29,900 bases of DNA from positions 1 to 29,900 of the IMG/VR virus record IMGVR_UViG_3300018413_000024. One strand, given 5' to 3'. The translations under genes were made by a program, and so were the position numbers. This stretch comes from a virus. Taxonomy: Duplodnaviria > Caudoviricetes. Below the pieces are notes generated by a model. It searched no databases. It was not told the origin of the DNA and was given only the letters and a program-made list of their open reading frames with translations. Below are positions 9,701-29,129 of this stretch, one piece after another. Position 1 is the first letter of the stretch, and each line of letters starts with the position of its first letter.

Positions 9701-9712
9701 TTGGAGAATCTG

Positions 9713-10135
9713 ATGAATCACAAGTTCACCACTGAGGATGGGCTACCCACTGAGGGAACAATAGCCCACTCCTTGTTTACTGAAACCTACCCCAAAGTGG
9801 AACTGGTCGAGCCTGTCCAGTTCGGTTGGGATGGTTACAACACACGGCTCAAGGTTGGCGATATTTTCTACCGCTACCCCTTGGAACCGATGACGGAATA
9901 CGATGAGGGTAGGTGCTACCGGGTTGCGCTTTTGCAAAACGGTGCCGCTTACCTTTTGAATTTTCCTACAAGCGGTTCGTTTACTGCGGACCGAGAATGG
10001 TTCCAAGGTCGCACAGCCAAAGGCAAATTCTACTCATACGGTTACACCTTGATAGCCCGTCATACGGATGAGGTGAAGCCTGGCTATGCGATTGACCGGT
10101 TGGACAAATGGGCTAAGCAATACGCTGGGTCCTGA
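9713..10135 (+). CDS. Hypothetical protein (island ORF4)
   Basis: GGAG RBS before ATG 9713. Aromatic-rich, 140 aa. Confidence 0.75.
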   Translation: MNHKFTTEDGLPTEGTIAHSLFTETYPKVELVEPVQFGWDGYNTRLKVGDIFYRYPLEPMTEYDEGRCYRVALLQNGAAYLLNFPTSGSFTADREWFQGRTAKGKFYSYGYTLIARHTDEVKPGYAIDRLDKWAKQYAGS

Positions 10136-10138
10136 TTG

Positions 10139-10172
10139 GGTGGGGTGGGGGACTTTGGTCCCCTGCCCCGCC
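10139..10172 (+). terminator. GC-rich hairpin within the island (partial terminator or processing/stabilising stem)
   Basis: 15-bp stem GGTGGGGTGGGGGAC/GTCCCCTGCCCCGCC with 3 G.U pairs that form only on plus-strand RNA. Weak U tail (ACTTTGATT). Confidence 0.6.
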
Positions 10173-10192
10173 ACTTTGATTGGAGGAAGCAA

Positions 10193-10504
10193 ATGAACAA
10201 GGTACGAACTGACGAATCGGTCTACTGGGACCGTTACTCGGATGCCCTATACGATGTTACTAGCCAGTTGGATTCTATGCGGAAGCGCATTAGCTGGATA
10301 TGTGACCGGGCTGACGGGTTCAAACGACAGACTGGCTCTGAGCGCCGTGAAGAACTTGTCAAGTCGGTGCGAGATGAACTGTCTGATGTTTGCAATGTCG
10401 CTTACCGCGATGCCCTGGATACTATCGCCAAGCTGGAAGCTATGGTCGGCATGGAGATTGAGGCAGAGGGCATTATCAAACGAATGGAGGAAGGCAATGG
10501 CTAA
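10193..10504 (+). CDS. Hypothetical helical protein (island ORF5)
   Basis: GGAGG RBS before ATG 10193 (MNKVRTD). Confidence 0.75.
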   Translation: MNKVRTDESVYWDRYSDALYDVTSQLDSMRKRISWICDRADGFKRQTGSERREELVKSVRDELSDVCNVAYRDALDTIAKLEAMVGMEIEAEGIIKRMEEGNG

Positions 10505-10835
10505 GAGAATACCTGCCAAAGTGAACCGTTACATGAGGGTCATGCGAGCTTTGCGTGCCGCCAAGGATACCGCTAACACTTCTACTAGCAAGTGGAGTGT
10601 TGTGGAGCCCTGGGGTCGTGACGAAGCCAGTGAGCTTCAGAATCATATCCACGAGATGATTCGTGCTAAGCGTGCTGAGCTTGCTGAGCTTGAACACGCT
10701 TGGTCTGAACTCATTGAGATGGTGGACGATGGTTGTGTTGAGGAATACACCGAGTTCACCCGCGCTCAGATGGAACGTCATGCTGAGGCTATGCGCCGTG
10801 GTCATGAGGAACTGAAGAAACGAGTGCTCTCATGA
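10497..10835 (+). CDS. Hypothetical coiled-coil protein (island ORF6)
   Basis: GGAGG RBS before ATG 10497 (MAKRIPAK). 8-nt overlap with ORF5. Confidence 0.75.
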   Translation: MAKRIPAKVNRYMRVMRALRAAKDTANTSTSKWSVVEPWGRDEASELQNHIHEMIRAKRAELAELEHAWSELIEMVDDGCVEEYTEFTRAQMERHAEAMRRGHEELKKRVLS

Positions 10836-11035
10836 TGACTCGCAAAGATTACATCGCAATCGCTGAGGCTATTGTCCCCTGCGGTTTGGAGATGGGTGCT
10901 AGTGACTATGAGTTACTAGTGGACCGCTTGAGTGCTGTGTTCGAGCGTGACAATCCCCAATTTGACCGTGAGCGTTGGGAGCTTGCCTGTGGGTTCCAAA
11001 GAATCCCTGGCTCCTATGTTCGCCACACTGTGTGA
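10832..11035 (+). CDS. Conserved small phage protein (island ORF7)
   Basis: MTRKDY..IA...F..DNP.FD.ER...AC pattern resembling a common small phage family. ATGA overlap. Confidence 0.75.
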   Translation: MMTRKDYIAIAEAIVPCGLEMGASDYELLVDRLSAVFERDNPQFDRERWELACGFQRIPGSYVRHTV

Positions 11036-18861: not shown

Positions 18862-19719
18862 CTACGGCACCAGCTTAGCCACCTTCTCAGCCATAACGTG
18901 CTCCCTGGCTGACCTGCGAGCCTTGGCTTCCCCAATCTCGACAGCATAGGTGTGACAATCCTTCATGCCCTTTTTGGCGTAGAACACGATGGAGTAACGG
19001 TAACCGTCCTTGGTCCTGGGCTTCATGGGTGTAACGCCGTGAACGTACCGGAATCCATTGAACCAGAGCGCCCATCCGTCACGACAGTTGATAGTAATGT
19101 CATATTCCGGCATATGGAGGTTTCCGCCTTCCATTCCCCTGCGGATGACGGGCATAGCGGACCAGGTGTCAAAATTGGAACCGTCACGGTGATAGGGCAA
19201 GGCACTCGACTGGTTTATGACACCTGAAGTCCAGAGAGAATCCTCGGTCATACGCCATTCCGGTAGGACTGCCCCTACAGCCTGATAGTCGTGCTCGTAT
19301 ACCTCGGGGAGCACATCGCGTAGATAATCCCCAAGCGCGGTAGCCTGTTCGTTCAGTTCCATCTGGAGCGATGGCGATTCCCAGGCGATTCCGGCTGGAG
19401 CGCAAGCCTCACGGCGTAGAACTACCGACCTGTTAGTCATTCCGAATATCTTAGAAACATTGCGGGTGCCTTTGGCTCTCAGAGTAGTTGTCCACTTGAC
19501 CGCTGGAATCTGCTGACGAAGAATCGCCGTGGACCGTGGGCTGGGCGCATAGACCAGGATTGCTTCCCCGGTATCGGCGTCACGGTAAATGCCTGCCTCA
19601 TTGACATTGGGGACTTTATCCACAACTTTATCCCCAACTACCTTCTCTGCCTCGGGCACGGTTAGTGCTCTCTGGATGAAGAACTCAGGTAGAACTTGAG
19701 TTGAGGTTTCTGACAGCAT
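18862..19719 (-). CDS. TET/JBP-like 2-oxoglutarate/Fe(II) dioxygenase
   Basis: TSGVIN...LPYHRD..N (HxD), GGNL, HGVTP (distal His) and RYSIVFY (2OG-binding Arg), matching the TET/JBP motif order. Confidence 0.88.
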   Translation of the reverse strand: MLSETSTQVLPEFFIQRALTVPEAEKVVGDKVVDKVPNVNEAGIYRDADTGEAILVYAPSPRSTAILRQQIPAVKWTTTLRAKGTRNVSKIFGMTNRSVVLRREACAPAGIAWESPSLQMELNEQATALGDYLRDVLPEVYEHDYQAVGAVLPEWRMTEDSLWTSGVINQSSALPYHRDGSNFDTWSAMPVIRRGMEGGNLHMPEYDITINCRDGWALWFNGFRYVHGVTPMKPRTKDGYRYSIVFYAKKGMKDCHTYAVEIGEAKARRSAREHVMAEKVAKLVP

Positions 19720-20389
19720 CGTTCACCAGTTTTTCTACGACCTCAGCATGGTCGTCTAGTCCCATATGATTCTGAAGCTCTGAGAGCCCTTCAACCATTT
19801 TCCCATACATCTCATTCTGGTAGTAGAGAATGATGGCTCGGGTGGCTTTTTGCGAGTATCTCTCCAGGAACTCTTGGTACGTTTTGTCCTTTTCGACAGC
19901 CAGCTCTGGGTTGCCTTCAGATTTGGTTAGCCTAGCCTTACCTGTGTCTGGGTCAATGACAGCATCGGCTGACATAATCTGTTCCTCCAGGAGTGCGCGG
20001 TAGTCCTCCACGTCAATCTCCTGGAATCCGACATTCTCCAAGTCATCTGGCGCGATGGACTCAAATGCGGCAACCAGTTCCTCGACATCCCATTCGCCAA
20101 GCTGACCGATACGGTTATCGGCAATCGAGTAAGCGGTGCGTGTTTCTGGGTCGTCATCAACTACGACTACAGCCATTGACTCCCAGCCCAGATTCTTTGC
20201 CGCCTGGTACTGGTGGTTTCCGGCAATGATTTCCATTGTGCCCTTTTGGACCACGATGGGTTTGCGCTGACCAAAGCGCTCATACGACTTCATGATGGCT
20301 TCTACGTCACCGCGCCGGGGATTCGAGCCTGCGGGCTTGAGCACGCTCAGAGGGCGCAGGAGCGGTTTCAGGGACTCTGCAACGTTCAT
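19685..20389 (-). CDS. ParB/Srx N-terminal domain protein
   Basis: NPRRGD, S..RFGQRKPIVV, IIAGNH...AA..LGW and IADNR motifs. No methyltransferase domain follows. GAGGA RBS before ATG 20389. Confidence 0.9.
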   Translation of the reverse strand: MNVAESLKPLLRPLSVLKPAGSNPRRGDVEAIMKSYERFGQRKPIVVQKGTMEIIAGNHQYQAAKNLGWESMAVVVVDDDPETRTAYSIADNRIGQLGEWDVEELVAAFESIAPDDLENVGFQEIDVEDYRALLEEQIMSADAVIDPDTGKARLTKSEGNPELAVEKDKTYQEFLERYSQKATRAIILYYQNEMYGKMVEGLSELQNHMGLDDHAEVVEKLVNDAVRNLNSSST

Positions 20390-20439
20390 AGGTCTATATA
20401 TCCTCTCTAGGGGTGTTGGGGCGTCAGCAAGGCGCATGG

Positions 20440-22283: not shown

Positions 22284-22434
22284 CTGTCCTCTCCACTTTT
22301 GATGCGAATAATGCGATTACGAGTACCCCGGCGCAAATGAAGCCCAGGGTTTTGGTTATTGGCTCAGCCTGGAGCGCCAGGAGAACGTAGACTACCGCCA
22401 TCGCGGTAAAGGTGCCTCGAACTATGACGGCCAT
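22273..22434 (-). CDS. Small membrane protein (53 aa)
   Basis: Not in the track: MAVIVRGTFTAMAVVYVLLALQAEPITKTLGFICAGVLVIALFASKVERTDDA. TGATG-coupled to ssb. Confidence 0.7.
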   Translation of the reverse strand: MAVIVRGTFTAMAVVYVLLALQAEPITKTLGFICAGVLVIALFASKVERTDDA

Positions 22435-22769
22435 CAGAATGGTGCCTCGTCATCGAACATGGGCTCTGAGTCGAACACTTGTGCGACTGCTTCAGCTCCC
22501 TTGGGCTCCTGGGTAATTCTGGGCTGATTCACGTGACCTCGGGCGTAGCGGATTTCCTCACCCTGGTCGTTCTCGAATCGCTCCATCTTGATAGACAGCA
22601 TCCCGTCAATCGTGACCACATCACCCTCGTTTGGTGTGTCGTTGGTCCAGACGGTCCACTTCTCGATTACCTCGTCACCGTTGCGGGTTGTGAACTTGGT
22701 TTCAGCCCAGAACCCTTTGGATTGGAACACGCGGGTTACCTCGGCGTGCTCGATGATTACTTTAGCCAT
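22434..22769 (-). CDS. ssb: Single-stranded DNA-binding protein
   Basis: OB-fold-like pattern (W.VW...EGD.V.I.G.L) and acidic DDEAPF tail. Confidence 0.75.
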   Translation of the reverse strand: MAKVIIEHAEVTRVFQSKGFWAETKFTTRNGDEVIEKWTVWTNDTPNEGDVVTIDGMLSIKMERFENDQGEEIRYARGHVNQPRITQEPKGAEAVAQVFDSEPMFDDEAPF

Positions 22770-22962
22770 GTTGTAGTTCCTCCAGTTCGCAGTCCGGGCA
22801 CATTAGGTGCCCATTTTTGTCAATAAATGGTGTTGGGAATGGGAACCCGCAACCGTGGCACGGTGCGAGTAACCCGGCACGTTTCATAGCTACTAGAAAC
22901 ATACCGATAATGGAAGCCACGTCCATGGTGTGGTCGTGGGGTTCCTCGTCATGCGATTCCAT
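22762..22962 (-). CDS. Small Zn-finger protein
   Basis: CHGC...CPDC motif. GAGGA RBS. Confidence 0.65.
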   Translation of the reverse strand: MESHDEEPHDHTMDVASIIGMFLVAMKRAGLLAPCHGCGFPFPTPFIDKNGHLMCPDCELEELQHG

Positions 22963-23146
22963 TTGCGTTCCTCCTCATATCTATCAAGAGCTTAGCAAAG
23001 GTATTCACATTGTCCTCGTATTGCTTCAAGTGTTTTTCCAGCGGGTCGTGACGGTATTTCCAGTAGGAATCGCCAATCTGGTTTATGAGCCGCTTCATTC
23101 TGAGTTGCTGAGGGTGGTCGGGGGATTCCGGGTGTATTCGATTCAT
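22949..23146 (-). CDS. Hypothetical protein
   Basis: AAGGAG RBS and ATGA overlap with the initiator gene. Confidence 0.65.
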   Translation of the reverse strand: MNRIHPESPDHPQQLRMKRLINQIGDSYWKYRHDPLEKHLKQYEDNVNTFAKLLIDMRRNANGIA

Positions 23147-23892
23147 TTGCTCTCCTTTTCTGGGTGTCCGAACTCACCTGGTCGGCACTCGAAGTGGTCA
23201 CCCTGGTCGTGGAGCGCCTTCACCCATGCTCTAGGTATCGGACCCTCGGCTGGCTTTTCCCCAGGCTTGACCTCGCGCTTAGGATAGGGCTCATCCTCCC
23301 AGCCTTCCCGGTTTAGCCAGGTGGCGGGATAGGGGATGAACTGGTGCTCGGGCAGGTTGGGGTCGTTGGCTAGTCGCGTCACTCCGTCCATAATCGCCAT
23401 TAGGTGTTCCTGTGCGAGATTCCCAAATGCCTTCCTCGCAGATGCCTTCCCTGCCTTCCTCGGGTAGAGCGCCCAGAAACTATCGAACGCATCAGAGAGC
23501 AAAGAATCGCCATACTTGGGTTTAGTATTCTCAAGATTGGTATTCTTAGGGGTCGGATTCACCGGTGTCGGGTTATCCGCTATCGGTAAATCCGATGACG
23601 GTGACGAAGTGACCCAGACAGTTTCCCCAAACTCACCGGATTCCTGCCGATTCTGTGACCGGACCAGGTAACCGTAATCCTCCAGCTCCTTCACGGCTGA
23701 CCGTATAGCATCCTTTCCGCAACCGTTGGCTTTAGCCAAGCTGTGGATGGAAACGGACCAACCGTCAGAGTGGGACAAGAGCTGAGCTAGCAGTCCCTTT
23801 GCCTTCAGCGAGAGATTCCCGTCCCGCAACCAATCGTTAGGTATTTGTGTGAAGCGACCCTCAAACTCCAGTCGCTGTCGGACTATCGGCAT
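23143..23892 (-). CDS. Phage replication initiator / replisome organiser
   Basis: N-terminal winged helix (FTQIPN.WLRD..LSLKAKGLL..L..EL...GYL) and C-terminal FD.FW..YPRK.GK...YPATWLN..WED domain. Confidence 0.85.
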   Translation of the reverse strand: MPIVRQRLEFEGRFTQIPNDWLRDGNLSLKAKGLLAQLLSHSDGWSVSIHSLAKANGCGKDAIRSAVKELEDYGYLVRSQNRQESGEFGETVWVTSSPSSDLPIADNPTPVNPTPKNTNLENTKPKYGDSLLSDAFDSFWALYPRKAGKASARKAFGNLAQEHLMAIMDGVTRLANDPNLPEHQFIPYPATWLNREGWEDEPYPKREVKPGEKPAEGPIPRAWVKALHDQGDHFECRPGEFGHPEKESK

Positions 23893-23920
23893 TCATCCTC
23901 CCAGATTCTTCTCGCCAATC

Positions 23921-24280
23921 CTAGAACGCAGGACCCTCCACGGGAGAGGCTCGCCCTGAGTCAATAAGATTCATTCCACAGTTGTCATCGAGCAGAACCC
24001 AGGAAGCCAGCCGGGGTATCCAAACTGGAGTCGTGGTCGGATTCTGCCCGTTCCGTAGTTTCCATCCCATCTCCCTGGCTCGCTCAGCCGCAAAAGAGTC
24101 AGACTCAATCAGCCCGTTGTAGAACGAGCAAAGCGTAATGATATTCGATGGTCTGTCACGCTCCTTGGAGCCACCCATCCCACGATTGAGCCTATGGTGT
24201 GGGACCGCAGTTTCCAGGTCGCTACAGTGAAGGCAACCCCAGTCCCTAGACAAGTATCGGTTGAATGTTATCCGCTTCAT
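23921..24280 (-). CDS. HNH-like nuclease
   Basis: RD..C.HC, HHR..RGMGGS and N...LC motifs. Confidence 0.7.
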   Translation of the reverse strand: MKRITFNRYLSRDWGCLHCSDLETAVPHHRLNRGMGGSKERDRPSNIITLCSFYNGLIESDSFAAERAREMGWKLRNGQNPTTTPVWIPRLASWVLLDDNCGMNLIDSGRASPVEGPAF

Positions 24281-24686
24281 CAGGCCACTCAATAATCTCT
24301 CTCAGAACAACTACGGTCCTGGCTTTGTCTTTGCTCGTATAGCGCTTGGTCAGATTCATCTCGACCACTCGGAAGTCATCATCGTAAGCTTCACCGTTGA
24401 GGGCGTCAAGAACCAGTTTCGCCATATTGTCCAAGTCACGCCTGCGCTTATTCCCATTGTAAAACTCAATCTCGACCAAAACGTGGAACGTGAAAGGCTC
24501 CTCATTGAGAGCCCGCCAGTGGTCCCTGACCTTACGCTCAGCCTCCATTGTTTCCTTGGGCGTGAACGTGCCGTGATTCGTCACTCTTGGGCGTTGCTTG
24601 GACCTGGGCTCCCCAGGCACGGTGAACCTAACCACCCTGTCTGGGGGATTCCCCTGGATGGGATTGACAATCCAGTCGTCAGCCAT
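24246..24686 (-). CDS. rusA: RusA-like Holliday junction resolvase
   Basis: PG.P.SKQRPR and DLDN.AK.VLDALNG.AY.DD motifs. Confidence 0.93.
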   Translation of the reverse strand: MADDWIVNPIQGNPPDRVVRFTVPGEPRSKQRPRVTNHGTFTPKETMEAERKVRDHWRALNEEPFTFHVLVEIEFYNGNKRRRDLDNMAKLVLDALNGEAYDDDFRVVEMNLTKRYTSKDKARTVVVLREIIEWPDEADNIQPILV

Positions 24687-25020
24687 TGGCTCCCCACTCC
24701 ATTCGGACCAGCGCCGATATCGAACGCCCCACTTCCAACCTATCCCGTAACGCCTTCAGCGCCTGCTGGCAGGCTCTATGCTTCTGGTCGGCTAGTTCCG
24801 TCTCTAGCAGGGTTGTACGGGTCTCCAGGTCCGCTGTGAAGCGTCTGACGTCCATAGGTCCCTCGATGGAGAGGAATGCCCGGGCGTAAGCCACTTTGTG
24901 CTTCACCCTGGCTCTCACACATTCCTCATCCAGTCGGGACAACTCATCTGTATGGGTTTGGATATCCTTGGAGATTGACTCCAGGGTCGCCATTACATCA
25001 TGCGGAGTGAGATTCGACAT
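24679..25020 (-). CDS. Hypothetical coiled-coil protein
   Basis: 113 aa, helical, overlapping both neighbours in the recombination operon. Confidence 0.7.
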   Translation of the reverse strand: MSNLTPHDVMATLESISKDIQTHTDELSRLDEECVRARVKHKVAYARAFLSIEGPMDVRRFTADLETRTTLLETELADQKHRACQQALKALRDRLEVGRSISALVRMEWGANG

Positions 25021-25195
25021 TCTTCATCTTCTTGCTCCGGTTGTATTTGAGCAAAGTCTTGCTCTTGTAGTAAAAGTCCCAAAGCCAAGCGGTCTGCCTG
25101 ACATCAGGCACGGACCGGGACCCAGCCAAATGCTTGACGTAAGCCTGACTCTCCTCAAGCAAACGCTTATCCAATTCCTTCATTAAAGTACGCAT
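24998..25195 (-). CDS. Hypothetical protein
   Basis: GGAGG RBS and TAATG coupling. Confidence 0.6.
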   Translation of the reverse strand: MRTLMKELDKRLLEESQAYVKHLAGSRSVPDVRQTAWLWDFYYKSKTLLKYNRSKKMKNVESHSA

Positions 25196-25710
25196 TAGCT
25201 CACCTCCTTCTTGCGCTTCTTTACGATGTCAGCGACACTAGCAGAATATCCAGCCTCAACTGCTTTATTCCACTCCGCTTCCAGTGACTTGACATCCTTA
25301 GCTTCCAGGATTGCTTTGACCGCCGATTCCGGAGCAATCTTGGCATCCTTCTTGACCGGACCACGCTGAGCCTTCTCCATCTCCTGACGGCTTGGGCGCT
25401 TGCCCTTAGCGTAGTCGGCATTAGCCAGGGCTCTACCGATAGCTGAGGTTTCTGCGTTTTCCAATGCGGCAGTACGGTTAGCTCCCGCACCTCCCTCAAT
25501 CTCGAACGCCAACCCGGTAGCCTTGGGGCACCTAGCGTGCTGGTCATCGTGGTCAATGAACACTTCAGCCCGGACCACAAAGTAGCCCTTGGCTCGGTCA
25601 TCGTCAGTTGTCATCTCGTAGGTCACGATGCGCCCATCTGGGTGGTCGTTGTAGAACGCACGGATGCGGTCCTCTACGAGTTCATATTCGTCAAGGTTGA
25701 ACTGTGGCAT
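25195..25710 (-). CDS. Single-strand annealing protein (Rad52/Sak-like)
   Basis: Y..V.DRI..F...HP.G.I and LENAETSAIGRALA motifs. Adjacent to the exonuclease. Confidence 0.7.
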   Translation of the reverse strand: MPQFNLDEYELVEDRIRAFYNDHPDGRIVTYEMTTDDDRAKGYFVVRAEVFIDHDDQHARCPKATGLAFEIEGGAGANRTAALENAETSAIGRALANADYAKGKRPSRQEMEKAQRGPVKKDAKIAPESAVKAILEAKDVKSLEAEWNKAVEAGYSASVADIVKKRKKEVS

Positions 25711-26293
25711 TGCTTTTCCTCCATTCGAGTAGCCGGTCAGCTACATCTATCAGTTTGTTCATTTCTTGCTCATCCCGCTCAATCCAAATGCTCTTTGGCT
25801 CGAACCAAGCAGGAACCATGACACCATCTACCTCTTTTCGCAGTAGCCAAGCGAATCGGCATCGTGCGGCACCAGTACAGAATAGTTGCCATTGGACTTG
25901 CCTCCGGTAATGTATGGGAATGTATTTCTCCTCACCCCAATCCTTGCCGGTGGTCTTGATTTCCGATATCAAATGATGGTCCAGGGATAGACCATCGGGT
26001 GTAGCCATATACCGGTTGTGCTCCTCGGATGCTGAGATAAGCCAGTCGTTAGGCATAATCTCGAACTCATCTTTCAGGAACTGTGCGATAACTGACTCCT
26101 GCTCCACACCAAAGTCAATGTAGGCGTTGCCTTCGATGACCTCAGACGGGGCACGGTGGATAGTTTCATTCTCGAACCCCTTGGGCGTGGCGGACCGGGC
26201 AACGGTAGTCGCTGTGACTCCCATCTCCCTGGCTTCCAACCAGGCTTGGCGATTCTGTGAGGAACTGGCGATGAAACGCCTCACGGCAATCAA
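25691..26293 (-). CDS. YqaJ/lambda-exonuclease-like recombination nuclease
   Basis: WL..R..G, ATPDG, EIKT and Y..QVQWQ motifs. Confidence 0.9.
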   Translation of the reverse strand: MIAVRRFIASSSQNRQAWLEAREMGVTATTVARSATPKGFENETIHRAPSEVIEGNAYIDFGVEQESVIAQFLKDEFEIMPNDWLISASEEHNRYMATPDGLSLDHHLISEIKTTGKDWGEEKYIPIHYRRQVQWQLFCTGAARCRFAWLLRKEVDGVMVPAWFEPKSIWIERDEQEMNKLIDVADRLLEWRKSNATVQP

Positions 26294-26541
26294 AATAGGT
26301 CCTCGGGAATGAACTTGGCTAGTTCCAGTTTCATTTCGTGGAACCCATCCTCGATGCTCCGGGTATGGGTCACTAGCACGGTAGAGGCACGCTCGGGTCG
26401 CCCCACATCCCTGTTGTGCTCGTAGTTGAGCAACTTGAACGTGAAACGGTCACCGTCATGCTCTAGGCGCACTTCCCAGGTCCCAATGAACTTGGCTACA
26501 GCTTTGCTTCTCTCCACATCCTGCTGTCTTGACCTATGCAC
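26290..26541 (-). CDS. Hypothetical protein
   Basis: GGAGG RBS before GTG 26541. Confidence 0.65.
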   Translation of the reverse strand: MHRSRQQDVERSKAVAKFIGTWEVRLEHDGDRFTFKLLNYEHNRDVGRPERASTVLVTHTRSIEDGFHEMKLELAKFIPEDLF

Positions 26542-26860
26542 TTTTGCCTCCAAACATACGCTCTCGGACACCTTTGCTAGTCAGCTCCCAGACAATCGCT
26601 TTGCGACCACTCCGGGTAGTTGTGCGCTTGCCGGAATCGCGGACCATCCCACGCTCGACAAGCTCAGACCGGCGGGACCGGATACCAGACTCGGAAGCAT
26701 ACGGCGCAGTCTTATACGCCCGGTATGCCTCTATCAGTTCGTGGTCCGGTCTGCCTCGATTCAGACAACGCAGAATGAACGACTGGGTTTCAGTTACATT
26801 CTTGACGCTCTCTGCCGCTAGGTCACTGGTAACTGGGTCTGTGTTTCTGGCTCTAGGCAT
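26534..26860 (-). CDS. Winged-helix DNA-binding protein
   Basis: AR.TDP.TS..AA and RSRRSELV..G.V.DSG....SGR...VW motifs. Confidence 0.7.
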   Translation of the reverse strand: MPRARNTDPVTSDLAAESVKNVTETQSFILRCLNRGRPDHELIEAYRAYKTAPYASESGIRSRRSELVERGMVRDSGKRTTTRSGRKAIVWELTSKGVRERMFGGKSA

Positions 26861-27071
26861 CTAGCCCACCTCCAACCACATAACCCAGGATGACTCCCAG
26901 TACCAGCGCACAAAATAAGCCCACGAGCATCAAACTCATCTCGCGGGCATCGAGCACCCAAACTGCTTTGGGCTTCCGGTATGTCCCACGTTTCCGCAAG
27001 TCACGCCGGGTCGGGTAGCGGTCAGGCTCCTCAACCTGTAACGCTATTTCCAGATTCTTGTAGTAACCCAT
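26853..27071 (-). CDS. Small membrane protein, first gene of the replication operon
   Basis: AGGAGG RBS and a C-terminal transmembrane helix. Confidence 0.7.
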   Translation of the reverse strand: MGYYKNLEIALQVEEPDRYPTRRDLRKRGTYRKPKAVWVLDAREMSLMLVGLFCALVLGVILGYVVGGGLDA

Positions 27072-27101
27072 TTTTCCTCCTAGGTATCTCGGGTTTCCCC
27101 A

Positions 27102-27157
27102 AGTCTATCTCGGACCACCGACAATCTAGGCTTTTCCCGTCTAGTCCGCTAGACTAG
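27102..27157. promoter_or_regulatory. Divergent promoter region with two TAGACT -10 boxes
   Basis: TAGACT on minus at 27102-27107 and on plus at 27150-27155, each facing an operon start. Confidence 0.6.
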
Positions 27158-27197
27158 TGGAGGGAGTGCCTTACTCCCCTGAAGAATGGAGAATGAA

Positions 27198-27632
27198 ATG
27201 GGTATACACCAAACGCTGGTTGAGATGCAAAGGTCGCAGGAGAATGCGATGCTTTTGGCTTTCCACAACCAGCTTCAGCAGATAGTCAATGAGGAAGTGG
27301 TCTGGGTGGCTCACGTGGATGAGATTATCCGCGCTGTCGCTGACACGATGCTTCCAAAACAACCCAGACCTACCGCCATGATGTGGTTGGCTTGGGACCT
27401 GCCCGAACCAGATGTAGAGATGGACCATAACGCTTCTATGGACACTCGCATGAGGCTCGGGCTTTACTACGCCTACTGTGACTTCCTGGACCAATACGAC
27501 CAGAGTTCGGCACGGGACCGGCACGGGAACACGCTGGAGGTCCTCAAGGGTGCTTTGGAAACGCGTGACGTGGACCTGGGCTCTGCGATTTACGACAACG
27601 GTGCCGGACAGTATGAGGTGACCCGTGCCTAG
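27198..27632 (+). CDS. Hypothetical protein
   Basis: GGAG RBS before ATG 27198. First gene of the second plus-strand operon. Confidence 0.75.
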   Translation: MGIHQTLVEMQRSQENAMLLAFHNQLQQIVNEEVVWVAHVDEIIRAVADTMLPKQPRPTAMMWLAWDLPEPDVEMDHNASMDTRMRLGLYYAYCDFLDQYDQSSARDRHGNTLEVLKGALETRDVDLGSAIYDNGAGQYEVTRA

Positions 27633-27702
27633 CAACCTACAGGAATGGTCCATACTAGTTGGCTTCGTAGCCATCTGGTTTCTTGTACTCATCTACGGAT
27701 AG
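27625..27702 (+). CDS. 25-aa single-pass membrane peptide
   Basis: Not in the track. GAGGTG RBS and GTG start: MPSNLQEWSILVGFVAIWFLVLIYG. Fills the gap between neighbours. Confidence 0.6.
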   Translation: MPSNLQEWSILVGFVAIWFLVLIYG

Positions 27703-27711
27703 GAGAACACA

Positions 27712-27933
27712 ATGGAAGAGCAGGATAAGCAACTGGCAAAACTGGCTCTGTTTCAGACCTCAAGGGCAAAGCTCGAACAACGCATAACGCGTTTCAATGA
27801 GATTGTCCGACAGGAAGTGATATACGCCTACAAGTTGGGTATATCGCAGACCGACATTGCTAACCACCTTGGAGTGTCTAAGCAACGCATCGGTCAGATA
27901 ACTGAGGAATACCGCAAGAATGGAGGAGCATGA
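27712..27933 (+). CDS. Helix-turn-helix DNA-binding protein
   Basis: G.SQTDIANHLGVSKQRIGQI HTH motif. AGGAG RBS. Confidence 0.88.
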   Translation: MEEQDKQLAKLALFQTSRAKLEQRITRFNEIVRQEVIYAYKLGISQTDIANHLGVSKQRIGQITEEYRKNGGA

Positions 27934-28292
27934 TGATAAACGCAATCCAGGTGAACCCGAACGGGTCCGCAATTCACGTTGAGATTGACGGGCTCAAGGA
28001 TATGCAACGCATAGTTGGCGGACTCATTGAGTTCGTGGTGAACCCAGAGGATGACTTTGAGGTCATCGTCAATGAGGAAGGTCTGCTGATTGACCTGGAA
28101 CTGAACACTCTGGCTAGCGTCTTGAGTGGTCGCAGGTTGGTTGGTCCGGCGATTCTAGTTGGGCGGGCTGACAGTGAGGGTAACACTACCTCGGTCCCCA
28201 AGGGTCTGATGAAAGACCTACACCTGGCGAGCATGATGCTCGACATGGCTGGAAGACCAGTCGGTGACCCCAGTTGGGAAGAAGTGAAGTAA
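27930..28292 (+). CDS. DUF3846-like protein
   Basis: L..MQ..VGG.IE, VNEEG, N..AS and LVG.A..VG motifs. Confidence 0.75.
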   Translation: MMINAIQVNPNGSAIHVEIDGLKDMQRIVGGLIEFVVNPEDDFEVIVNEEGLLIDLELNTLASVLSGRRLVGPAILVGRADSEGNTTSVPKGLMKDLHLASMMLDMAGRPVGDPSWEEVK

Positions 28293-28296
28293 CTCA

Positions 28297-28361
28297 ATAC
28301 GAACGTATGCCCCGGGGAAGAATCTGGAGGAAGAACCCGGGGCATACTCGTATCTAGTCTA
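28297..28361 (-). ncRNA. Candidate antisense sRNA hairpin with anti-Shine-Dalgarno loop (may also act as terminator)
   Basis: Perfect 12-bp stem (28305-28316/28336-28347), 19-nt loop UUCUUCCUCCAGAUUCUUC on minus, TAGACT at 28356-28361. The loop is complementary to the mRNA at 23892-23911. Confidence 0.6.
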
Positions 28362-28451
28362 CTACTGGCAACCCTCGCAGTTCACCAACTCTGCCGGGTC
28401 CACGGGACAAGCGTACCCGCCGATATTCTCCATCAAGTCCAGGTTAGCCAT
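28362..28451 (-). CDS. 29-aa Cys-rich peptide ending CxxCQ
   Basis: MANLDLMENIGGYACPVDPAELVNCEGCQ, TAATG-coupled to the holin. Confidence 0.6.
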   Translation of the reverse strand: MANLDLMENIGGYACPVDPAELVNCEGCQ

Positions 28452-28654
28452 TACTCGCTCACCTGCTTGTCGTAAGTAAGAACTGACGTAAGCAACGACA
28501 TGATAGCTGACAGCGCGGTAACTGAAAGCAGATTCATCCAGTCCACCTCGAAGATTCCAGTGACCCCGACACCGATAGTAGCGATTGCTGTCTGTGCCCC
28601 TGTTTTCACTGCTCTCTCCCCTGCGAAGTTCCAATACTTGACCCATTTATCCAT
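28451..28654 (-). CDS. Holin, r1t-like
   Basis: ERAVKT.AQ.AIA...VDW...S.LTS motif with two hydrophobic segments. Confidence 0.85.
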   Translation of the reverse strand: MDKWVKYWNFAGERAVKTGAQTAIATIGVGVTGIFEVDWMNLLSVTALSAIMSLLTSVLTYDKQVSE

Positions 28655-28880
28655 CTGAACCATCTCCTAATTGACTTGCCAACTTGACATCCTCGTAGGT
28701 CGCTCCACCAATGTAGCTGGTGAGAACAAGTGTGATTAGAGCCACTCCGCCCGTAATCAAATCTGAGGACCCTATCCGGTCCGAGAACACAGCCACGGTC
28801 CCAAAAAGAATCATAAATAGACCAGCACCAATGCCGGTCCAAATAATACGACGGCGCACCGCCCACGATGGTTTACCCAT
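28647..28880 (-). CDS. Two-TM membrane protein (holin-like)
   Basis: W..RRR, two transmembrane helices and Y..GAT.ED. In the lysis cassette. Confidence 0.7.
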   Translation of the reverse strand: MGKPSWAVRRRIIWTGIGAGLFMILFGTVAVFSDRIGSSDLITGGVALITLVLTSYIGGATYEDVKLASQLGDGSDG

Positions 28881-29129
28881 CTACGGAATGAATCTGGTGA
28901 TAAAAGGCACGATTGCGGCAAGGAATGAGGCTATCGCCATCATCTGCCAAACGCGCATCTCCACTTTGCGGATACGCTCCTCGTGGTCCTTGACCTGCTG
29001 TTCAATATCCTTGAGTTCATCGTTCAAGTTCGGTAGCTGATGCGAGAGCTTCTCCAGCATGGACTGGATTTTCTGAACCTGCAAATACAGCTCCTTCATC
29101 GTGATTCGGGTGGACGATTCGTCAGCCAT
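28881..29129 (-). CDS. Coiled-coil + C-terminal TM lysis-cassette protein
   Basis: DHEERIRKVE followed by a transmembrane helix. ATG 29129 is TAATG-coupled to the lysin. Confidence 0.7.
   Translation of the reverse strand: MADESSTRITMKELYLQVQKIQSMLEKLSHQLPNLNDELKDIEQQVKDHEERIRKVEMRVWQMMAIASFLAAIVPFITRFIP

Follow-up and report, generated by a model that had tools for sequence, protein, structure and literature searches.

A terminator-like viral hairpin whose loop is complementary to the replication-initiator ribosome-binding site: a candidate trans-acting RNA

The hairpin at the end of the late gene block

The window, by which we mean the whole stretch of DNA analysed here (29,900 nucleotides), corresponds to an IMG/VR virus record of 29.9 kb, with its completeness rated at 99%. 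Almost all of its genes are on the minus strand, the exceptions being a cassette on the opposite strand (27712-28292), which encodes an HTH protein (27712-27933) and a DUF3846 protein (27930-28292), and some ORFs within 9701-11035. Along the minus strand from 27692, the early genes come first (a RecE-like exonuclease, RusA, HNH, the replication initiator, another exonuclease, a ParB-like protein and a queuine tRNA-ribosyltransferase-like protein), followed by terminase, portal, protease, capsid, connectors, tail and tape measure and, across the record ends, by a glycine-rich tail protein, an M23 peptidase and three small ORFs; the order closes with a Cys peptide gene and then the hairpin that is the subject of this study. 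The replication initiator (23143-23892, minus strand; 249 aa) matches phrog_270 (E 6.9e-39) and Pfam HTH_36 (1.5e-11). The Cys peptide gene (28362-28451, minus strand) encodes 29 residues, MANLDLMENIGGYACPVDPAELVNCEGCQ, with the motif P[VI]DPx5C[ED]xCQ followed by the stop codon, and gave no PHROG match. Integrase families had no match among the 50 ORFs scanned, in agreement with an initial annotation made from the sequence, which saw no integrase. The queuine tRNA-ribosyltransferase-like gene (18862-19719, minus strand; phrog_6059, 1.9e-68) adjoins the gene with a ParB-like nuclease domain (19685-20437, minus strand), a pair that hints at a 7-deazaguanine-type DNA modification module. When 27600-29000 was compared at the nucleotide level with a GenBank phage collection, neither the near nor the distant search mode returned a match, and a scan of a genome collection with the initiator returned distant relatives only (37-41% identity); one of these, 37% identical, is on a contig of a Rhodoglobus MAG, the sole hint of a host.

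The DUF3846 gene and the last minus-strand gene are convergent, and the 69-nt gap between their stop codons holds a terminator-like hairpin (28297-28353, minus strand), which lies directly after the Cys peptide gene at the end of the late/lysis genes and of a one-directional gene block of about 27 kb. Read on the minus strand, an outer 6-bp stem (ATACGA, 28353-28348, with UCGUAU, 28302-28297) and a 12-bp GC-rich stem (5' arm GTATGCCCCGGG, 28347-28336; return arm CCCGGGGCAUAC, 28316-28305, followed by a 2-nt bulge, GU) enclose a 19-nt loop, UUCUUCCUCCAGAUUCUUC (28335-28317), which is antisense to the translation start region of the initiator and forms the predicted pairing (seed) region. This is exactly the geometry given in the initial annotation. 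Over the 96 nt folded, the predicted energy was -37.5 kcal/mol with a z score of -4.13, and none of 200 shuffled sequences was its equal. The hairpin is a real, conserved element. Covariance models of Rfam, including the C4 family, gave no matches at E up to 1 within 23500-28800 on both strands.

The hairpin could be a terminator or RNA 3'-end stabiliser and nothing else, serving two convergent units, in which case its pyrimidine-rich loop would look like an anti-Shine-Dalgarno by composition and the match described below would have no function. Its place between convergent genes suits this reading, and a GC-rich stem-loop with a 12 + 6-bp stem closing a transcription unit is what an intrinsic terminator offers. 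The loop does not fit as well: intrinsic terminators usually have loops of about 3-8 nt, beside which 19 nt is unusual, and the initial annotation was right to single it out as larger than normal. Moreover, no U-tract is found 3' of the stem in the window, where the tail reads GUUCGUAUUGAGUUAC, and a terminator scan and a sigma-70 consensus scan of the window listed nothing at the hairpin. Two other candidate roles were rejected. A hidden plus-strand gene that would use the GGAGG of the loop as its ribosome-binding site has no ATG, GTG or TTG within range, and mimicry of the 16S rRNA tail was discarded for the window, since the loop has CCUCC alone in common with that tail.

A TAGACT box (28356-28361, minus strand), a candidate -10 element, is located 8 nt upstream of the 12-bp stem (spacer 28355-28348), as the initial annotation had noted, and abuts the TAG stop codon of the Cys peptide gene (28362-28364). 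TAGACT is the most intergenic-enriched of 2663 gene-strand hexamers, with CTAGAC second: six of its seven minus-strand copies are intergenic (28361, 27107, 20886, 16098, 8514 and 5315) and one is within a gene (12024), for a binomial probability of 6e-5 that would fail correction for 2663 tests. It precedes the first early gene both in the window and in a related locus, L306, and the box 8 nt before the stem is TAGACT in the window, L156 and L306 and TATACT in L004; this conservation at the hairpin is at most suggestive, since the box abuts a stop codon that itself reads TAG. No sigma-70-type promoter was found at the hairpin by the consensus scan. TAGACT is probably the -10 box of the phage's promoters, or another regulatory box, and a promoter role at the hairpin is plausible. 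The 99-nt gap before the first early gene (27072-27170, minus strand) contains a small hairpin (AGGGGAGU...ACUCCCU), a palindrome (CTAGTCTAGCGGACTAG) and TAGATT/TAGACT boxes, and is likely to be an early control region.

RNA data were available as unstranded contigs from six salt-marsh metatranscriptome runs, in which DNA carry-over is possible. In four of four runs the contig approaching from the late side stops just short of the hairpin on its 5' side, at 28357 or 28362, and two further contigs, which come from the opposite direction, terminate at 28312 and 28269; a fifth run gave one contig (28507-28278) through the hairpin and the sixth covers 28538-28688 only. RNA contig cover is absent from 27207-27874 and from other parts of the region. 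Contigs of two of two DNA runs, possibly the source of the window, to which they are almost identical, cross the whole region. The halt of RNA contigs at the hairpin is again in line with a terminator; as unstranded contigs carry no end information, these data hint no more than weakly at an RNA boundary formed by the hairpin and at its presence in RNA.

Pairing of the loop with early-gene start regions

The predicted target, GAAGAAUCUGGGAGGAUGAA (23892-23911, minus strand), comprises the initiator leader, its Shine-Dalgarno sequence and the first base of the start codon, the last A being the A of ATG; the start codon is confirmed by relatives that keep ATGCCGAT... at this place. Hairpin and target are on the same strand, 4.4 kb apart. 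The initial annotation had described an antisense match of 18 bp between the loop and the initiator ribosome-binding site, ending at the A of AUG, and we reproduced it exactly: 11 bp, one bulged target G, 4 bp, one U.U and 3 bp. The match fills the whole loop, extends from -19 to +1 of the leader and has a predicted energy of -24.8 kcal/mol, and the target region is weakly structured by itself (z +0.40). The loop would thereby present a single-stranded seed of the kind used by trans-acting sRNAs, one that faces a distant mRNA over 18 pairs at its Shine-Dalgarno sequence and start codon. A terminator with a chance match is hard to reconcile with the finding that, of 2000 shuffled loops of preserved composition, none binds the initiator leader equally well.

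We then scored the loop against the gene starts of the phage, a check that the initial annotation had named. Among 41 curated minus-strand gene starts the initiator came first, 7 kcal/mol ahead of the next (-24.8 kcal/mol vs -17.8, -14.1 and -13.8), and it was also first of 166 six-frame ORFs, each represented by the best of several candidate starts. A scan of every 30-nt window on both strands placed the next-best site, a purine-/G-rich coding stretch, at -22.4 kcal/mol, just 2.4 kcal/mol weaker, so that energy by itself is not decisive.

The four best start sites in the window all belong to early genes with GGAGGAA-type sites, which would also be expected if the loop acted as a general anti-Shine-Dalgarno sponge, damping all strong early ribosome-binding sites or titrating a factor of the host, without any particular tie to the initiator. 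In the window, however, pairing extends beyond the Shine-Dalgarno sequence, with 11 of the 18 pairs formed upstream of it by bases peculiar to the initiator, which the size of the energy gap to the next start also sets apart. The second-best start site is a possible further target, CUGGAGGAA (22777-22785, minus strand), nine complementary nucleotides in the leader of the gene at 22434-22769. A possible second target is the start region (27050-27080, minus strand) of the first early gene (26853-27071), which has two partial matches: its Shine-Dalgarno stretch, GGAGGAAAA, matches the 5' part of the loop, and AAGAAUCUGGA in codons 5-8 is complementary to the loop over 11 nt. The homologue of this gene is the top-ranked target in L306 and the third in L004.

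The 10-mer AAGAATCTGG occurs in four exact copies, at 20188-20197, 23901-23910 and 27050-27059 (minus strand) and at 28318-28327 (plus strand, in the loop); two of these are coding, as Lys-Asn-Leu codons, one in the ParB-like gene and the other in codons 5-8 of the first early gene. Such recurrence would be compatible with a shared DNA site, that is, with one DNA-binding protein of the phage (the HTH protein nearby or the initiator, for example), which binds both the loop DNA and the DNA upstream of the initiator and with which the sites co-evolve. The HTH gene adjoins the hairpin, as such a reading might lead one to expect. Against it, we saw no repeat array or palindrome of the operator or iteron type; in addition, the match never fails to include the Shine-Dalgarno sequence, and a strong hairpin holds the element in its loop.

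Co-variation of loop and leader among relatives

Relatives were sought through the Cys peptide and through the initiator. A degenerate DNA pattern of the peptide motif has an estimated 560 stretches in IMG/VR; two narrower pattern scans spanned the whole IMG/VR collection, and a protein-guided initiator scan yielded 80 IMG/VR loci. Among 38 distant initiator relatives tested, 37 had no Cys-peptide motif upstream and were unusable for comparison. A fixed pipeline, applied to all loci retrieved, led from 334 Cys-motif loci to 31 with an initiator homologue 1.5-9.5 kb downstream and to 28 non-redundant ones; the 18 loci with a perfect stem of at least 8 bp were tested and the other 10 omitted. 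At L245, L219 and L301 the initiator is off the record, which placed them outside the comparison. The loops of the L245, L219, L196 and L204 lineages resemble anti-Shine-Dalgarno sequences, with initiators that fall outside the contigs.

The Cys-peptide gene often has a terminator-like hairpin within about 100 nt downstream: a perfect stem of at least 7 bp is present at 72 of 127 Cys-motif matches, and some of the others fold into imperfect hairpins (RNAfold). Many relatives have an ordinary hairpin with a 4-7-nt loop and a U tail, and the fact that such terminators occupy the same place in most of them speaks for termination as the sole function. A U-rich tail also follows the homologous hairpin in L009, L306, L243 and L157. 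A subset has large pyrimidine-rich loops with CCUCC, CCCCC or CCACC, and every loop that matches a leader carries one of these three, as a sponge for Shine-Dalgarno sequences would. The stems vary among lineages yet always pair, with compensatory changes between the window and L156 (G>T with C>A) and between L108 and L243 (G>A with C>T). Stem co-variation was read straight from the sequences, since a MAFFT alignment of five hairpins was structurally poor. The loop, on the other hand, is identical in L156, L082, L083 and L084 and near-identical in L004 despite differing flanks, and its retention while stems and flanks vary is not what a terminator alone would require.

In L224 and L242, a pyrimidine-rich CCUUUCUGG lies between the peptide stop codon and the terminator; its opposite strand reads as a Shine-Dalgarno sequence followed by ATG AAC..., possibly the start of an antisense ORF. 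At about 3989-4016 of L009 (minus strand of the locus), GGGGAACCAAA extends as far as the AUG with which the first gene of the opposite-strand cassette begins, and the 5' half of the 22-nt loop of L009 forms 11 contiguous pairs with it; this would be a possible second target, located on the opposite strand.

Loop and initiator ribosome-binding site are complementary in lineages that differ from each other at both (window/L004, L306, L009, L011, L108/L243 and L157). With its own initiator leader, the loop forms 16 pairs in L004 (two of them G.U), 14 in L009, 12 in L108, 10 in L011 and eight in L243, whereas in L157 all seven of its seven bases are paired. In L306 there are 13 pairs, which take up the whole 14-nt loop and reach -1; relative to the window, two loop bases and three leader bases are gone from this locus, at corresponding places. 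The matches contain single-base bulges and G.U pairs. Co-variation by itself fits RNA pairing and a shared protein site alike. The copies differ, however, by single-base indels in the window, L004, L009, L011 and L108, and tolerate G.U-type changes, which suits RNA helices and not a fixed footprint; together with the absence of operator-like repeats, this leads us to regard a common DNA-binding site as very unlikely. The match in L222/G005 was set aside, as it amounts to a generic 6-bp Shine-Dalgarno pairing.

For the 18 loci, the summed energy of own loop with own leader was -222, against a permutation null of -159 (sd 11; p 5e-6), and with one locus per close clade (14 loci) the permutation p was 2e-5; a hand-picked earlier set of loci gave the same picture. 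Thus seed and target co-vary across relatives, as would be expected of a trans-acting sRNA. The initial annotation had proposed that such co-variation be looked for in homologous phages, and the outcome (own versus other p ~1e-5, with clean controls) bears out its expectation. The controls were the opposite-strand loop sequence (p 0.076) and the start regions of the RecE-like gene (p 0.44), of RusA (p 0.66) and of the gene at 26534-26860 (p 0.30); as these were negative, the signal is neither an effect of composition nor a genome-wide flavour of ribosome-binding sites. The match of loop and initiator leader is not due to chance.

The signal is unevenly spread, some half of the relatives having ordinary loops that match nothing. 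Shuffled-loop p values were at or below 0.05 in eight of the 18 loci, and 10 hairpin-bearing relatives are without a significant match at p >0.05 (L079, L341, L158, L358, L116, L322 and L365, p 0.21-0.98; L327, L118 and L242, p 0.09-0.12), a further point for those who would see a mere terminator. The own leader was the best of the 18 for six loops; in a cross matrix of loops and leaders, the margin for L011 is slim (-16.8 vs -16.3). Within its own genome the initiator start ranks first of 166 in the window, first of 57 in L004, second of 62 in L306, second of 116 in L009, second of 120 in L011 (the one better being the hairpin's own opposite strand) and fourth of 93 in L108. In whole-genome scans the initiator site is narrowly first in the window and L004, fourth in L011, fifth among the five sites listed in L108 and outside the best 12 in L009. 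Weighing the ordinary terminators and non-matching relatives against the retained loop, the shuffles and the own-versus-other signal with its clean controls, we consider a terminator with a functionless match unlikely.

Co-variation with the loop, less strong than for the initiator, is seen as well in the leaders of two further early genes: those of homologues of the gene at 25195-25710 (minus strand; leader GAAUGGAGGAAA; n=18, p 2e-4) and of the gene at 22434-22769 (n=7, p 0.005). The initiator is accordingly read as the main target, though probably not the sole one, and the predicted target set is probably wider. The initial annotation had read the loop as directed at a single target; the initiator stands as the best target, but its exclusivity probably does not, as at least two other early-gene leaders co-vary with the loop. 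Their co-variation is what one would anticipate from a sponge, with which the data are partly compatible, whereas the three early genes used as controls show no own-genome signal; together with the initiator-specific pairs upstream of the Shine-Dalgarno sequence, this makes a sponge with no special tie to the initiator quite unlikely.

A candidate anti-ribosome-binding-site RNA and its known counterparts

The reading that we favour, and which the comparison of sequences makes probable, is that of a terminator-embedded, trans-acting RNA directed against ribosome-binding sites. By pairing with the initiator mRNA at its Shine-Dalgarno sequence and start codon, the loop would bar the entry of ribosomes, and a few other early genes are predicted to be touched in the same way. 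An 18-bp helix within a closed 19-nt loop would be strained, so that full pairing should need a free mRNA 5' end or opening of the stem; the likely nucleus of pairing would be the 11 contiguous pairs at the 5' side of the leader. The RNA itself may be the 3' end of the late mRNA, a short transcript from the TAGACT box, or both. Since the hairpin is also the 3' end of the entire late transcription unit, it could be a 3'-UTR element with no promoter of its own; its position fits the class of 3'-UTR-derived sRNAs, and the TAGACT box 8 nt upstream and the unstranded RNA contigs that end at 28357/28362 are equally part of the picture. If the late transcript is the source, early replication and recombination functions would be turned down once late transcription is complete; if the RNA has its own promoter, it could exert dose-dependent feedback on the initiator, as plasmid copy-control RNAs do. 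The initial annotation had proposed a separate transcript of about 50-60 nt, acting either in a switch from replication to packaging or in the control of copy number. More tentatively, and with the odds somewhat against so broad a statement, the hairpin may represent a new class of phage riboregulator, in which the terminator of a genome-length late transcript in small aquatic siphoviruses carries in its loop an evolvable "address" for the initiator and a few early-gene starts, and in which the completion of late transcription, or genome copy number, feeds back on replication by RNA pairing alone. If correct, this would be a simple, protein-free circuit for timing or copy control, and phage terminator loops would merit annotation as possible regulators. 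The natural compensatory variants found in these uncultivated phages would then make the rules of seed and target directly testable with reporters.

To our knowledge, very few phage-encoded RNAs govern the phage's own programme. The nearest in logic is the c4 antisense RNA of phages P1 and P7, whose loops are complementary to the ribosome-binding region of the phage's own mRNA and which acts at a distance; c4 itself arises by processing from the leader of its own target operon and controls immunity (ant). The hairpin described here differs from c4 in position, in target and in its single-hairpin form, and gave no Rfam C4 match at E up to 1. Among phage sRNAs, a review lists VpdS, PreS, 24B_1, OOP and others, and in its accessible sections none of the examples resides in a late-operon terminator or is aimed at the phage's own initiator (PMC12197685). 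Our search of full-text literature other than subscription-only articles likewise found no terminator-loop regulator of a phage's own initiator.

Inhibition of initiator translation by a small RNA is known from plasmid pMV158, in which RNAII acts on repB and the dosage of the RNA gene can give negative feedback, according to the available part of the article (PMC4485353). The hairpin is predicted to resemble RNAII in being directed against translation of the initiator of its replicon (PMC4485353). Copy-control RNAs of plasmids are, in the portions of the sources at hand, encoded in cis, on the strand opposite to their target and in full complementarity with it, whereas the hairpin neither overlaps its target nor lies opposite to it but is 4.4 kb away on the same strand, and its pairing is imperfect.

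In its use of a terminator loop, the hairpin is closer to certain bacterial sRNAs. The LhrC sRNAs of the Gram-positive bacterium Listeria monocytogenes have a CU-rich motif in their hairpin loops, that of the terminator included, which pairs with the Shine-Dalgarno sequence of mRNAs in trans and blocks translation, and RNAIII, RsaE and SprD are named beside them as sRNAs with a UCCC motif, in the accessible text of that report (PMC4132741). A CU-rich terminator loop facing the Shine-Dalgarno sequence of a distant mRNA is common to both (PMC4132741), but sRNAs of the LhrC type, as described in that text, are chromosomal and have several redundant seeds, whereas the hairpin described here belongs to a phage, has a single large loop, closes the late operon, would be directed at the phage's own initiator and has no Rfam match. 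The terminator loop of OxyS kisses the translation start region of fhlA (as described in the part available of PMC11979758), so that in both cases exposed bases of a terminator loop face the start region of a target (PMC11979758); OxyS, by the same partial account, makes two short kissing contacts with structured loops, whereas a loop-to-linear match of 10-18 bp is predicted here. It is likely that the mechanism is of a known kind and that the phage setting in which it is found is new.
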